DNA from: a virus | Taxonomy: Duplodnaviria; Heunggongvirae; Uroviricota; Caudoviricetes | DNA length: 4,538 bases | IMG/VR virus record: IMGVR_UViG_2657245461_000004 | Direction: 5' to 3' (one strand) | In this document: in pieces, positions 1-4,538 of the stretch | Layout: each line of letters opens with the position of its first letter | Numbering within the stretch: position 1 is the stretch's first letter | Translations under genes and position numbers: made by a program | The notes under the pieces: generated by a model | The model's input: only the letters and a program-made list of their open reading frames with translations | Told to the model about the DNA's origin: nothing | Database searches by the model: none

Positions 1-44
1 TCCTTCTGATGCCATTCTATTTCAGGAAGGAGTGTCCGTTAAAC

Positions 45-239
45 TCAGGCTACCTCACCCGTCCCGGATACCGAGAACGTTTCGTCCAGCAACTGGAGAG
101 AGTTCGACGGTGGCATCATTGCCCATGCCGGAGGCGCTGGAGGTTTCGGCTGAGGATGGCACAGGGCATTTTCCTTTGACGAGCACCCGACCACCATTAT
201 CAAGCTTGCGCCGAAGAGCATCATTTTCAGCTTTCGCAT
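45..239 (-). CDS. Rz1: Rz1-type outer-membrane spanin lipoprotein (o-spanin)
   Basis: 64-aa ORF in an alternate frame inside the Rz gene. N-terminal signal peptide with lipobox IMVVG-C (Cys19) followed by a short proline-rich mature part ([11 protein letters not shown]), as in lambda Rz1. Its stop (47..45) lies 10 nt beyond the Rz stop. Confidence 0.8.
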
Positions 240-459
240 CAGCTAACTCCTTCGTGTATTTAGCATCGAGTGCATCAGCATCACGCTGGCGCTGCTGCAT
301 GTCAGTAATGGTTGCGTTCGCCAGCTTCAGTTCTCCGGCGTTTTTGTCGCGCTGCTCTTTGTAGGTAATGGCGTTATCACGGTAATGATTAACAGCCCAT
401 GACAGGCAGACGATGATGCAGATAACCAGAGCGGAGATAATCGCGGTGACTCTGCTCAT
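55..459 (-). CDS. Rz: Rz-type inner-membrane spanin (i-spanin)
   Basis: ATG at 459..457 overlaps the endolysin TGA (ATGA). N-terminal TMD ([22 protein letters not shown]) followed by a charged, helix-prone periplasmic domain ([46 protein letters not shown]) that closely resembles lambda Rz as recalled. The ORF-track start at 474 is 5 codons upstream in the same frame. About 134 aa, shorter than lambda Rz. Confidence 0.85.
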
Positions 460-989
460 TGATCTATCCCCCAACAGGCTAATGCGCTTTCCTGGTCACG
501 ACGAATAACCTGTCCATAGCAGTTATTTGAACGTATGCGGCAATCGCGCCCAACATCTTTTATCCACCAGCGAATCGCCTCGCATGCGCCCTTACGATCA
601 CCGGCATTCAGCCGCTTATAAAACGTCGACGGGAAACACTTACCGGGGCCAATGTTATAGGGGCAAAATGACGCTATACCCGCTTTCTGGGGTTCGGTCA
701 GAGGTACTTTAATATTGCGCTCCACCCATGCCAGCGCCTTATCACGTTCAATAGCGTTAACCTGGTCACATTTTTCCTTCGACAGCTTCATTCCCGGTAT
801 GACAGGCTTACCATCCACCATTGTGGCACCACGACAGATGGTCCATATGCCAGAACCATCACGGTATGCCGTTGTGTGATTACCCTCTTTTTCGTTCAGA
901 AACTGGTCAAGTATCTGGGGAGCAGACGCGCCTGCGGCAATCAGCGCCAGAACAGCAGCCGACAGGCCGTATTTGATTTTTGCGCTCAT
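456..989 (-). CDS. R: SAR endolysin, T4-lysozyme-like muramidase (GH24)
   Basis: 177 aa. Gly/Ala-rich weakly hydrophobic N-terminal signal-anchor-release segment ([21 protein letters not shown]) with no Cys. Catalytic E-x8-D-x5-T motif ([16 protein letters not shown]). C-terminal region follows the pattern of P21-type lysozymes (YNIGPG...GD.KGAC...RW...CWG). Lies between pinholin and Rz/Rz1. Confidence 0.9.
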
Positions 990-1054: not shown

Positions 1055-1684
1055 TCAGCCCCGGCTGGATCCAGTCATCAGGCTCTTTCTTAAAGGGGGA
1101 GTATTGAAATCACGAAGAAGAGCCTCCCGCACCGCAGCATCCATGTCTGCACCACTGGCAAGTGCTTCAATCTCTGCCGCCACCTGCAAATACCCCATGC
1201 AACGGCCAATGCGTTTCATAACTCTGGTGTTTTCGTCTTTCAGGCATCTGATAGCGAGATTAATAATTTTCAGGCAGTGATGATGCGATGCCCGGACAGG
1301 TTTTCCGTTCTCATAAACGACGAACTCACCCTCTTCACAGGAAACCCTGAAAGGCCGATGGGGTTCCTGGTCTTTATCCGGTGCAGACGCAATAAAATCA
1401 CTTTTATGCTCTTCCTCTCCGGCACTGTTAACCGTAATGACGTACTCAGGCCGCAGGTAAGCCGCCTCTTTTTCTGACAATGCGGCCGGTAAAAACTTTT
1501 CCTGCAAAAACTTCATAAAAGTCTCGTGAGCGACTTTGTGGCAGTAATCGTAAATCGCCGCATAATGCTCATCGCGGCGTTTGTTTTCATCTTCAGAACT
1601 CACCAACGCCGACAATTTTTTATTAAGCTCAGTGATTTCATTTTCCAGGTGATTGAATCGCTGATTCATTTCTTCATGCTTCAT
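1055..1684 (-). CDS. hypothetical protein, 209 aa, acidic, no TMD; inserted between pinholin and endolysin
   Basis: Long ORF starting ATG 1684..1682, 4 nt after the holin-A stop (TAAATAATG), with an SD-like GGGGAGAG upstream. N-terminal coiled-coil-like segment (EEMNQRFNHLENEITELNKKLSAL), several Cys/His (YCHKVAH, HHHC). I recognise no family from the sequence. Coding status is supported by length, coupling and absence of a competing sense-strand ORF. Confidence 0.6.
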   Translation of the reverse strand: MKHEEMNQRFNHLENEITELNKKLSALVSSEDENKRRDEHYAAIYDYCHKVAHETFMKFLQEKFLPAALSEKEAAYLRPEYVITVNSAGEEEHKSDFIASAPDKDQEPHRPFRVSCEEGEFVVYENGKPVRASHHHCLKIINLAIRCLKDENTRVMKRIGRCMGYLQVAAEIEALASGADMDAAVREALLRDFNTPPLRKSLMTGSSRG

Positions 1685-1687
1685 TAT

Positions 1688-1873
1688 TTACTCTCCCCGT
1701 GCAGCCTTACGCTTGTCTTCTCTTATTTTGAAATACAGATTCGTCAGATAAGTCAGAAGCCCCAGAAGCAGACTTCCCAGCACACCAATCGCAGCCCACT
1801 GTGATGGCCTGACCTGATCCAACCACTGCAAAAACCAGTAGCCGGCACTGCCGGCGGGGGGGCCGTAGGCAAT
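1688..1873 (-). CDS. S: class II pinholin (S21-like), copy A, 5'-truncated by scaffold gap
   Basis: Translation ...[61 protein letters not shown], stop TAA 1690..1688. About 88% nucleotide identity to copy B. The N-terminus is lost in the N-run. The G7 homopolymer at 1856-1862 at the contig end may be a sequencing error (it gives PP where copy B has TS). Confidence 0.7.
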
Positions 1874-1883: not shown

Positions 1884-1897
1884 AATGATGGCGACAT
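1884..1897 (-). other. 5' fragment of a second SAR-endolysin gene (MSPS-), cut by the gap
   Basis: ATG 1897..1895 overlaps the holin-B stop TAA (TAATG) and reads M-S-P-S-L/F before the N-run. As recalled, phage 21 R begins MPPSLRK immediately after S. SD-like GAGGTGA upstream. Confidence 0.45.
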
Positions 1898-2112
1898 TAT
1901 TCACCTCTCGCAGCCTTACGCTTGTCTTCTCTGATTTTGAAGTACAGATTTGTCAGATAAGTCAGGAAGCCCAGAACCAGACTCCCCAGTACACCAATCG
2001 CAGCCCACTGTGACGGACTGACCTGATCAAGCCACTGTAAAAACCAGTAGCCAGCACTGCCTGCGGAGGTGCCGTAGGCAATGCCCGTTGAAATTTTGTC
2101 CATGGATTTCAT
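1897..2112 (-). CDS. S: class II pinholin / antiholin, S21-type with dual starts (S71/S68), copy B
   Basis: 71 aa [71 protein letters not shown]. Two in-frame Met (M1, M4) separated by a Lys, a Gly/Ala/Ser-rich TMD1, a hydrophobic TMD2 and a basic C-tail. Essentially the phage 21 S21 sequence as I recall it. SD GGAGG 7 nt upstream of ATG 2112. Confidence 0.9.
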
Positions 2113-2243: not shown

Positions 2244-2391
2244 CACAGTTAATCGGAATAAAAGCAGAGTGCTTATGAATGATCGCACGCCCGAAGGTTA
2301 GTATTTCTGCACAGCAATTTTGCAAAAAAAGGCGATCATTCATAACTTAAACGTCTTTCAGTCACTCCGGGATTTCCCATCATCGCAGACT
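2244..2391. repeat. 148-bp repeat, copy X (direct repeat of 2403-2550, 145/148 identical)
   Basis: Direct alignment with copy Y shows 3 mismatches (2287-2288 ac vs ct; 2331 g vs a). Contains a 14-bp inverted repeat (2273-2286 / 2332-2345, 45-bp spacer) and an 11-bp stem arm at 2353-2363. Ends at the N-run. Confidence 0.9.
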
Positions 2392-2401
2392 NNNNNNNNN
2401 N
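2392..2401. other. assembly/scaffold gap (10 N)
   Basis: Run of 10 n between two near-identical 148-bp repeat copies. Confidence 0.95.
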
Positions 2402-2402
2402 T

Positions 2403-2550
2403 CACAGTTAATCGGAATAAAAGCAGAGTGCTTATGAATGATCGCCTGCCCGAAGGTTAGTATTTCTGCACAGCAATTTTGCAAAAAAAAGCGATCATTC
2501 ATAACTTAAACGTCTTTCAGTCACTCCGGGATTTCCCATCATCGCAGACT
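2403..2550. repeat. 148-bp repeat, copy Y, immediately downstream of the tRNA cluster
   Basis: Same unit as copy X. Nested inverted repeats: 14-bp arms 2432-2445 / 2491-2504 (ttatgaatgatcgc) with 45-bp spacer, and 11-bp arms 2512-2522 / 2547-2557 (gtctttcagtc / gactgaaagac) with 24-nt loop. Confidence 0.9.
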
Positions 2551-2563
2551 GAAAGACTCTGAC

Positions 2564-2638
<75 letters not shown>

Positions 2639-2641
2639 ATA

Positions 2642-2717
<76 letters not shown>

Positions 2718-2719
2718 AC

Positions 2720-2796
2720 TGGACCGCCACCGGGGACTCGAACCTCGCACACTCAACTTAAAGGGTTGACGCTCTTTCCTGATGAGCTAGTGGCGG
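2720..2796 (-). tRNA. atypical tRNA-like gene, anticodon UUU (Lys) if functional; possible pseudo-tRNA
   Basis: Reverse complement CCGCCACUAGCUCAUCAGGAAAGAGCGUCAACCCUUUAAGUUGAGUGUGCGAGGUUCGAGUCCCCGGUGGCGGUCCA folds as a cloverleaf with a perfect 7-bp acceptor stem and anticodon stem UCAAC/GUUGA. Non-canonical features: loop CCUUUAA has C at position 33, the 5' end is C1, the discriminator is U73, and the T-stem has an A-C mismatch. Confidence 0.5.
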
Positions 2797-2797
2797 T

Positions 2798-2873
2798 TGG
2801 TGGCCCTTGCTGGATTTGAACCAGCGACCTGGCGATTATGAGTCGCTCGCTCTCACCACTGAGCTAAAGGGCC
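2798..2873 (-). tRNA. tRNA with anticodon CAU, most similar to tRNA-Ile2 (lysidine-modified, AUA decoder); Met not excluded
   Basis: Reverse complement GGCCCUUUAGCUCAGUGGUGAGAGCGAGCGACUCAUAAUCGCCAGGUCGCUGGUUCAAAUCCAGCAAGGGCCACCA. Canonical cloverleaf, anticodon loop CUCAUAA. About 90% like E. coli ileX as I recall it, with C4-G69 and C5-G68 acceptor pairs. Same position as ileZ in Stx-type phages. Confidence 0.8.
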
Positions 2874-2882
2874 GGGCGCAGG

Positions 2883-2911
2883 ATAATAACGTTACGAAAT
2901 CAATGTTGCAA
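2883..2911 (-). promoter_or_regulatory. candidate sigma70 promoter for the tRNA cluster
   Basis: On the minus strand: TTGCAA (2911..2906), 17-nt spacer, TATTAT (2888..2883). The first tRNA 5' end (2873) lies about 10 nt downstream of the -10. Sequence-pattern prediction only. Confidence 0.45.
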
Positions 2912-2975
2912 GCATTCAAAAATCACCCTTATCTCCTCCACCAGCGCATTCACCATGTCTATCCGAGATAAGTGG

Positions 2976-3004
2976 CACAAAAAACCCGCTTGTGGGCGGG
3001 TTTT
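2976..3004 (-). terminator. intrinsic terminator (tR'-like), potentially bidirectional
   Basis: Minus strand AAAA-CCCGC-CCACAA-GCGGG-TTTTTTGTG: 5-bp GC stem, 6-nt loop, U6 tract. The plus strand reads as a hairpin followed by TTTTGTTTG. Lies about 70 nt downstream of the putative late promoter. Confidence 0.65.
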
Positions 3005-3054
3005 GTTTGCTTTTGCCATCACGTACAAAATCGGCAAAGTATCAGATTTGCATG

Positions 3055-3083
3055 AATATATGCCTTTCAATCTACTTTTGCAA
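3055..3083 (-). promoter_or_regulatory. candidate late promoter (pR'-like) overlapping the 3' end of Q
   Basis: Minus strand TTGCAA (3083..3078, within the last Q codons), 17-nt spacer, TATATT (3060..3055) directly after the Q stop. This is the position expected for pR'/qut in lambdoid phages. Sequence-pattern prediction only. Confidence 0.5.
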
Positions 3084-3755
3084 CACTTTGCTTTGAAAAT
3101 GCCGTCTTTTTTTTGAACGTGTTCTCATTACAAACAATAAAGCCTCACTATCCAGTCGGTGAAAAATGTGTTTCATTGCAACCCAGTGACGAGTAAATGT
3201 TTTGGACCAGTTTTTAGTTGTCACTCCCGCCAGTAATGCCAGCTCCTGGTATTCATAACCTTCCCCACCAAAAAGTTCTGCTTTTACTGCCTGCGCCGCC
3301 AGCCAGATTAATTTTTTCAGGCGTTCCTGCGTTTTCCCTGCAATTTTTCTGGTACCGGATTGAGCATTAAATTCATTCCACGCCCACTGTGTTATCGCGA
3401 TCTGATATTCCCAACAAATACTCCCGCTGTAACACCACAACAACCAGGCTTTATAGTGCTCTTCAAGAGACAGAACAGCCCGCCGCCACGATGATGTCGA
3501 AAACTCAACCGGACTGACCAGAGGAATTGACGTCCCCTTCGCCAGCGATTGCTTTCCCGGGATTGGTGGATTATCCCGCGTTATCATTTTTCCAGTCACT
3601 TCATCGCGGTACCGGATTTTTTTACGCCTGTAACGCCCTGTATCGAACATGGCATTCTCTTGCCAGGCTTCAAGCTGACCTTTTGTTGCCCCACTCAAAT
3701 CAGCGGTGGCGATAATGAGCTGCTCACGCACAAACTGTAAATACTGGTTATTCAT
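3072..3755 (-). CDS. Q: putative late-gene antiterminator Q (non-lambda type)
   Basis: About 227-aa ORF whose ATG (3755..3753) overlaps the rusA stop (ATGA). The ORF track starts at GTG 3761. Position between rusA and the pR'/tR'/tRNA/lysis block matches Q of lambdoid phages. Several Cys/Trp-rich segments. The call is mainly by synteny; I cannot verify homology without a search. Confidence 0.6.
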   Translation of the reverse strand: MNNQYLQFVREQLIIATADLSGATKGQLEAWQENAMFDTGRYRRKKIRYRDEVTGKMITRDNPPIPGKQSLAKGTSIPLVSPVEFSTSSWRRAVLSLEEHYKAWLLWCYSGSICWEYQIAITQWAWNEFNAQSGTRKIAGKTQERLKKLIWLAAQAVKAELFGGEGYEYQELALLAGVTTKNWSKTFTRHWVAMKHIFHRLDSEALLFVMRTRSKKRRHFQSKVLQK

Positions 3756-4117
3756 GCGCACCCCAGTTCTGTGATTTTTATCCCCAGCCGCCCACCAGGA
3801 ACGAGCTGACCGCGCACAATATTGATTTCATCAAACTGCTCGTCGTCTATAAGTAGTCCAGCATGCGTCAGCGCATCCAGCGGTGCCTTCAGGATATTGT
3901 CCAGGTCACGACGGCGCTTATCCGGTGGCTCTGCAATAATCTTTATCGCCAGCCTTCCGGACAGGTTTAATTTCAGTCGCTGCTGGCGAACAATTAGCGC
4001 CACATCACGGCGATAACGCTCACCGGCTTTTGATACAAAATATGTGCTGCCACGACGTCGCCAGTAGGTGTTCACCGTTGGCGGGTAAGGCAAAACAAAT
4101 TCTATGCGTTCGGTCAT
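3752..4117 (-). CDS. rusA: crossover junction endodeoxyribonuclease RusA (Holliday junction resolvase)
   Basis: 121 aa with the RusA family pattern LPYPPTVNTYWRRRG ... PDKRRRDLDNILKAPLDALTHAGLLIDDEQ ... GGRLGIKITELG. ATG 4117 directly follows the upstream TAA (TAAATG). Confidence 0.9.
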   Translation of the reverse strand: MTERIEFVLPYPPTVNTYWRRRGSTYFVSKAGERYRRDVALIVRQQRLKLNLSGRLAIKIIAEPPDKRRRDLDNILKAPLDALTHAGLLIDDEQFDEINIVRGQLVPGGRLGIKITELGCA

Positions 4118-4387
4118 TTATGCTTTCCACTTCAGAACACCCGAATTTCTCGCGTGCATTAAAAAACGAATCAGCAACAACAACTGACTACCGTGTTTTT
4201 CTTCAAAATCTTTTACCCCGGCGTGTAGTTCGTTATGGCATTTACGACACAGCGGAATAACAAACAAATCGTCAGCCTTTGTTCCCATCCCTCCCAGTCC
4301 ATGACCAATGATGTGGTGCGGATCATCTGCCTGATTGCCACACGTCATGCATTTCTGCGTTTTTACCCAGCGCGTGTATACAGGCAT
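4118..4387 (-). CDS. ybcO: YbcO/DUF1364-like putative zinc-binding nuclease; true start uncertain
   Basis: The C-terminal 89 aa from ATG 4387 (SD-like GGGAAGAG upstream) carry the pattern C-x2-C ... HHIIGHGLGGMGTKADDLFVIPLCRKCHNELH, matching the E. coli YbcO motif as I recall it (G-L-x-G-x-G-x-K-x-x-D-L ... C-x-x-CH-x-E). The frame is open upstream through GTG 4459 to the window edge, so the gene may be longer or 5'-truncated by the window. Confidence 0.6.
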   Translation of the reverse strand: MPVYTRWVKTQKCMTCGNQADDPHHIIGHGLGGMGTKADDLFVIPLCRKCHNELHAGVKDFEEKHGSQLLLLIRFLMHARNSGVLKWKA

Positions 4388-4538
4388 CTCTTCCCGTTGT
4401 GGTTTCTGGCGCTGGAGATACTGAGCCGGAGATTCCGGATCAACGGCAATGCTGACCACCGTCTCTTCCTGTGGTGGATTCTGTTGCTGGTGGGCGTGAG
4501 GCAGCGGCGCAAGATTTTTTGTGCGCTGCTTCAGTATG

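Follow-up and report, generated by a model that had tools for sequence, protein, structure and literature searches.

Does the second gap of this scaffold, located between the tRNA genes and the holin gene, hide a cargo gene, or has one spacer been written down twice? The window (the whole stretch of 4,538 nucleotides analysed here) contains two N-runs, each of exactly 10 N, at 1874-1883 and 2392-2401. The second N-run is flanked by a direct repeat of 148 nt (2244-2391 versus 2403-2550), the copies of which, head-to-tail as the scaffold shows them, have a period of 159 nt. They are 98% identical, which is far above chance level, and differ at three sites, 2287/2446 (A/C), 2288/2447 (C/T) and 2331/2490 (G/A). 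A fourth allelic difference was found one base leftward (C at 2243 versus T at 2402), and the true overlap of the flanks is therefore 149 nt. The flanks thus overlap by 148 to 149 nt with 97 to 98% identity, and the length of the gap is negative. It is highly probable that this N-run is a scaffolding artefact in which one spacer is seen twice, once for each of two prophages, and that it hides no cargo gene; the single-copy state was demonstrated in relatives and siblings of the source strain, not in the source strain itself.

The best match to both the Q/tRNA side and the lysis side of the window was found in the E. coli FDAARGOS_944 genome (NZ_CP065613.1), at two separate places. Prophage 1, at 651 kb, contains genes for DUF968, RusA, Q and tRNA Ile(CAT)/Lys/Thr/Gly, followed by the spacer, the holin gene and rrrD, and prophage 2, at 5,022 kb, contains tRNA Ile/Arg/Thr/Gly, the spacer, the holin gene, an ORF of 209 aa, a lysozyme gene and a lysis protein (Rz) gene. 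Repeat copy 1 is identical to prophage 2 at 148/148 positions and to prophage 1 at 145/148, and repeat copy 2 shows the reverse (148/148 to prophage 1, 145/148 to prophage 2). The three mismatches thus represent sites at which the alleles of two co-resident prophages differ. The N-runs divide the window into three contigs, to which the same comparison was applied. Contig 1 (1-1873) is 99.2% identical to prophage 2 and contig 3 (2402-4538) is 99.7% identical to prophage 1 (locus L001). The short contig 2 (1884-2391, 508 nt) is a mosaic of both: positions 1884-2062, which include 14 nt from the start of rrrD, match prophage 1 exactly and depart from prophage 2 at 15 sites, the next 121 nt (2063-2183) are the same in both prophages, and from 2184 on the prophage 2 base is present at all five diagnostic sites (2184, 2243, 2287, 2288 and 2331). 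The whole window is thus a chimeric scaffold of two prophages from one E. coli genome, with the following features.

1-57, minus strand: terminal 57 nt of IS600 (IS3 family), an element that truncates the Rz gene and with which the scaffold ends; in reverse complement, identical to nt 1-57 of the IS600 copy in locus L116
55-474, minus strand: Rz-type lysis (spanin) gene of prophage 2, its 3' end cut by IS600 (Pfam Phage_lysis, 2.4e-23, profile positions 1-104 of 126; 99.2% identity to L003)
456-989, minus strand: phage lysozyme gene of prophage 2 (Pfam Phage_lysozyme, 5.4e-24; annotated as lysozyme in L003 and L004)
1055-1684, minus strand: hypothetical ORF of 209 aa between holin and lysozyme genes, marker of prophage 2 (no Pfam match)
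1688-1873, minus strand: last 186 nt (3') of the prophage 2 holin allele A, with which contig 1 ends (88% identical to 1897-2082; matches L003 and L004)
1874-1883, no strand: first 10-N placeholder, where the scaffold switches from prophage 2 to prophage 1
1884-1897, minus strand: start (14 nt) of rrrD, the lysozyme gene of prophage 1, located at the left end of contig 2 (window position 1884 is position 2800 of L001, in which rrrD is annotated at 2316-2813, minus strand)
1897-2112, minus strand: holin allele B, 71 aa, class II (P21 S type; Pfam Phage_holin_2_1, 1.4e-35); 1884-2062 is identical to prophage 1
2113-2243, no strand: holin-proximal part of the spacer, single in the window (no difference between the reference prophages in 2063-2183; bases 2184 and 2243 are those of prophage 2)
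2244-2391, no strand: repeat copy 1, the prophage 2 spacer allele, right end of contig 2 (148/148 to L003 and L004, 145/148 to L001)
2392-2401, no strand: second 10-N placeholder, between two overlapping alleles
2402-2550, no strand: repeat copy 2, the prophage 1 spacer allele, left end of contig 3 (148/148 to L001; its first base, T at 2402, is the prophage 1 base at the equivalent of 2243)
2551-2563, no strand: final 13 nt of the spacer before tRNA-Gly (13 nt from marker to tRNA-Gly in 122/125 copies)
2564-2873, minus strand: phage tRNA array, Met/Ile(CAT) 2798-2873, Lys(TTT) 2720-2796, Thr(TGT) 2642-2717, Gly(TCC) 2564-2638 (ARAGORN and Rfam)
2981-3004, no strand: G+C-rich hairpin flanked by T runs, located between Q and the tRNAs (terminator-like site in the promoter/terminator scan)
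3072-3761, minus strand: antiterminator Q gene, 229 aa, prophage 1 (Pfam Phage_antiter_Q, 3.7e-91)
3752-4117, minus strand: RusA Holliday-junction resolvase gene (Pfam RusA, 8.7e-16)
4118-4538, minus strand: C-terminal part of a DUF968 (YdfU-like) protein gene running off the window (Pfam DUF968, 3.9e-47; annotated in L001)

Much of what the initial annotation had read from the window agrees with these data. It had described two 148-bp copies of 98% identity around the second N-run, and these are present with their three mismatches now located; it had placed a tRNA-Gly gene and holin B on either side, and they were found at 2564-2638 and 1897-2112, respectively, both on the minus strand. Its proposal that the mismatches indicate two genomic copies from related prophages is supported by the perfect match of each copy to a different prophage of FDAARGOS_944. 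It had also seen no CDS between the tRNAs and the holin gene, and indeed there is no supported CDS in this interval, where the ORFs do not exceed 59 aa and none is annotated by RefSeq in the five closed loci. An Rfam scan of the window detected the four tRNAs only, with zero matches in the spacer, and a promoter and terminator scan gave zero sites in the spacer.

The chimeric nature of the window is also apparent from its gene order. In all contiguous loci that reach the tRNA side, from IMG/VR and closed genomes (11/11), the 209-aa ORF is linked to tRNA Ile-Arg and not to this Q. The rrrD gene is linked to tRNA Met/Ile(CAT)-Lys in 4/4 contiguous loci and to this Q in three of those. The order seen in the window, in which the 209-aa ORF is joined to the Met-Lys tRNAs and Q, was absent from all contiguous sequences examined.

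After removal of the duplication, the region from 2063 to 2697, which extends from the 5' end of the holin gene through the spacer to tRNA-Thr, is approximately 99% identical between the two prophages; the 3' part of the holin gene is 88% identical and the next tRNAs differ. It has the appearance of a sharply delimited mosaic module that was exchanged recently.

Read literally, the scaffold contains the repeat twice, head to tail and with a spacing of 159 nt. A real tandem duplication of ~159 bp in one of the prophages, interrupted by a few bases that were left unresolved, would give this picture. Closed genomes were therefore searched with the 816-nt query 2085-2900, which includes the duplication and the Ns. 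It matched in one place each in 494 complete E. coli genomes, and in all 30 matches listed among these the span was 656 to 657 bp, that is 816 minus the repeat period of 159 nt; two spacer copies were absent among these 30. Since a genome with two copies would outscore the single-copy matches, the fact that none appeared speaks against tandem copies. Similarly, the de-duplicated stretch of 379 nt from the holin start to tRNA-Gly gave one unbroken match of 378 to 379 bp in 522 closed E. coli genomes. In the RefSeq annotation of the five closed loci, the holin gene is followed by 292 bp without a gene and then by tRNA-Gly, and both spacer alleles occur in closed genomes within an uninterrupted tRNA-Gly-to-holin spacer of this length. 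In the 125 contiguous copies of the spacer that were surveyed, the marker occurs once per piece, and two nearby copies were seen only in scaffolds split by N-runs.

Further evidence came from sibling assemblies. IMG/VR was scanned with a 59-nt marker taken from the repeat, which gave 115 loci, stored split at N-runs, and the same construct was found in two sibling scaffolds. In IMGVR_UViG_2700989169_000005, the middle piece is identical to contig 2 (508/508). The piece that follows it begins at the equivalent of 2184, 59 nt to the left of the start of contig 3, beyond which it matches window 2402-2857 without a difference. IMGVR_UViG_2667527998_000003 has a first piece of 1,873 nt in which only positions 1858 and 1861 differ from contig 1, and a small middle piece that carries allele 1 with the same end (...GCAGACT); its Q-side piece has allele 2, and the three allele sites are its only differences from window 2403-4538. 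The alleles are thus swapped between the pieces in one of the two siblings, which is incompatible with a fixed tandem duplication, and a real duplication is barely credible; it was rejected, as no contiguous molecule, whether closed genome or contiguous locus, carries both copies. The opposite links between alleles and flanks in near-identical strains indicate, moreover, that the placement of the branches is arbitrary.

These data are best accounted for by an artefact that would have arisen as follows. The source genome would contain at least two lambdoid prophages sharing a near-identical module, composed of the 5' end of the holin gene, the 292-bp spacer, tRNA-Gly and tRNA-Thr, with spacers that would differ at only four to five bases. 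A short-read de Bruijn graph assembler would have kept both versions as alternative branches of one bubble, and the scaffolder would have set these branches in series with a minimal 10-N buffer, not side by side. The implied length of the gap would be about -148 nt, with no missing sequence. The first gap (1874-1883) would have the same origin, at the holin gene, contig 1 thus representing the lysis cassette of prophage 2 and contig 3 the Q and tRNA region of prophage 1, and contig 2 would switch from prophage 1 to prophage 2 inside the 121-nt stretch common to both. The real locus in each prophage would then consist of Q, the late terminator, the tRNA array, the empty 292-bp spacer, and the holin, endolysin and spanin genes, and reads of the source strain at '...CATCGCAGACT' would continue only into 'GAAAGACTCT'.

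The positions at which the pieces are cut are consistent with this scheme. Left pieces always end at 2391, that is 2331+60, or 60 nt past the last allelic site. The start of one sibling piece, 2123 (2062+61), is where the first 61-mer without a holin difference has its last base, and the first base of right pieces is itself allelic (equivalent to 2243 or 2184). These boundaries would fit de Bruijn nodes at k=61 that were joined in a row after omission of the first k-1 bases of each. The stretches shared exactly by both reference prophages are 121, 58, 43, 42, 70 and 136 nt long, and at this k the four or five differences therefore form one bubble between two collapsed nodes. Both the assembler and its k are inferred, and the ends at 1873 (contig 1) and 1884 (contig 2) lie outside the k=61 arithmetic, as they are not accounted for by visible differences.

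The Velvet scaffolder places N buffers between contigs judged to be neighbours by read pairs if no path is found, and the buffer is often very short (PMC2793427). For a minimum gap of 10 N, only this general N-buffer behaviour of the Velvet scaffolder can be cited from the literature searched. The window resembles mis-scaffolding of multi-copy prophage modules of the Velvet/Pebble type in its fixed 10-N runs, in flanks that overlap instead of abutting and match different genomic copies, in ends that fall on allele differences or k-1 past them, and in its recurrence in siblings. It departs from that pattern in that two of the four piece ends at the first gap do not follow the same arithmetic.

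A variant of this scheme accepts the gap as an artefact but takes the mosaic of contig 2, in which holin B is joined to the prophage 2 spacer allele, as real and as the result of recombination or gene conversion between the co-resident prophages. The identical 508-nt piece in a second assembly is in line with it, as are shuffled combinations of holin and spacer alleles in other closed genomes, one of which (L006) carries the prophage 2 bases at 2184 and 2243 with holin B. However, no such mosaic is present in the closest closed genome, and contig 2 had no 100% match in closed genomes (best match 99.0%). Furthermore, the links between the alleles are reversed in the third sibling assembly, and the switch lies inside an exact repeat of 121 nt, which is longer than the inferred k. 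A real mosaic is thus rather unlikely, and the switch within contig 2 is preferably attributed to the assembly, like the N-run itself.

The first 10-N run is an artefact of the same kind. It is flanked by copies of 186 nt with 88% identity (1688-1873 versus 1897-2082), which are the 3' parts of two holin alleles, and here allele A of prophage 2 has been placed in series with allele B of prophage 1. The apparent truncation and duplication of the holin gene are not real. At the end of contig 1, a run of seven G (GGGGGGG, 1855-1861) was observed, in which positions 1858 and 1861 differ from the sibling scaffold and from all 46 other copies of holin A; these 46 copies show A or C, then GG, then T in this region. 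The two differences are likely to be end-of-contig base errors.

The initial annotation had pointed out that the interval between the tRNAs and the holin gene is the position at which stx-type phages carry their toxin genes, which agrees with the gene order of an annotated Stx2 phage (Q, ileZ, argN, argO, stx2A, stx2B). The context of such a site is present in the window, with Q at 3072-3761, four tRNAs at 2564-2873 and the holin gene at 1897-2112. One of the prophages of the source strain might, unlike every closed relative, carry a moron, a toxin gene or an IS element between the two spacer copies, at a site homologous to that of stx.

To examine this, the 125 copies of the spacer were surveyed. 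The spacer was intact in 112/125, with the holin start 219 to 222 nt from the marker, and tRNA-Gly lay 13 nt from the marker in 122/125 and was not found in the other three. IS elements do land in this spacer: IS600 was found in 5/125 copies, at the equivalent of 2223-2225 with a duplication of 3 bp (CAC), another element of the IS3 family in one copy, at the equivalent of ~2117, and a fragment of the IS66 family in one copy, at the equivalent of ~2174; the remaining copies were cut by piece ends. The IS600 copies are at an identical spacer position in five IMG/VR prophage scaffolds, L116 (8527-9789), L020, L057, L124 and L032. These elements were the only inserts, and no stx, toxin gene or other moron was present in the spacer among the 125 copies.

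Several features of the window argue against such an insertion. It would require a target duplication of 148 nt at its flanks, and no known insertion mechanism at this site makes one; moreover, the flanks carry the alleles of two different prophages. All three IS sites of the relatives (~2117, ~2174 and 2223-2225) are crossed uninterrupted by contig 2. The piece ends beside the gap (2391 and 2402) consist of spacer sequence only, with no IS sequence, unlike the end of the scaffold, where an IS600 terminus is present at 1-57 and nowhere else in the window. In addition, no insert between two copies was found in any closed genome among the 494 to 522 that have the spacer in one place. Hidden cargo is thus very improbable. 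The initial annotation had concluded from the gap that the real content of the tRNA-to-holin interval is unknown, a view that does not stand, as the overlapping flanks together cover the whole spacer, which is an uninterrupted 292 bp in closed genomes. It had named as evidence against its reading a closed assembly with a single copy and nothing inserted, and this is the state of the 522 closed genomes, which are relatives of the source strain. The N-run at 2392-2401 gives no indication of a toxin or other cargo gene and is an ordinary assembly artefact.

A search for literature on ileZ/argN/argO found none, and the annotated Stx2 phage record was used for comparison. As in Stx-converting phages (e.g. 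Stx2a_F349), Q is followed by a tRNA array headed by a tRNA with a CAT anticodon, and this tRNA part is 92% identical. In those phages, the order is Q, ileZ-argN-argO, stx2AB and the downstream late genes, whereas here the tRNAs are Ile(CAT)/Lys/Thr/Gly, and the interval of 292 bp contains no stx-type cargo gene and has no annotated CDS in the five RefSeq loci. The closest resemblance is to the late regions of Qin/DLP12-like lambdoid prophages and phages (FDAARGOS_944, phages vB_EcoS-689R5 and PhiR47_1), which are 99 to 99.7% identical at the nucleotide level and have the gene order and the 292-bp spacer in common with the prophages analysed here. The late region of this group comprises Q, the tRNA array, a class II holin gene, the rrrD or rrrQ lysozyme gene and Rz. 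Each of the two prophages taken alone shows no difference from it, and only their joining in the scaffold differs. The underlying loci are ordinary and already known late regions of Qin/DLP12-like lambdoid prophages.

Short N-runs with near-identical flanking repeats in draft scaffolds, and in the IMG/VR entries derived from them, should thus be viewed with caution, as they can be prophage alleles placed in series, in scaffolds that are chimeras of two prophages. A literal reading of such scaffolds suggests features that are not real, namely duplications in tandem, concealed cargo, holin gene truncations and wrong orders of prophage genes.

At the left end of the window, the 3' end of the Rz-type lysis gene is disrupted at position 58 by the left end of IS600, which is present in reverse complement (1-57), and the alignment of contig 1 to the reference prophage starts only at position 59. 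Copies of this element are annotated in RefSeq genomes as 'IS3-like element IS600 family transposase'. The insertion of IS600 in the Rz gene is probably the reason why the scaffold ends there.

On the other side, the tRNA with the CAT anticodon (2798-2873) is called Met by ARAGORN and tRNA-Ile by RefSeq, the latter name would mean that the CAT is lysidine-modified, as it is in ileZ of Stx phages. The Q gene is an intact 229-aa ORF in the window and is annotated as frameshifted in both FDAARGOS closed genomes (L001, 3824-4512; L007, 3525-4213). Between Q and the tRNAs, the promoter/terminator scan also detected a promoter-like site at 3083-3055 (minus strand). By their position, this site and the hairpin at 2981-3004 may correspond to the late promoter pR' and the terminator tR', respectively, which are expected there.
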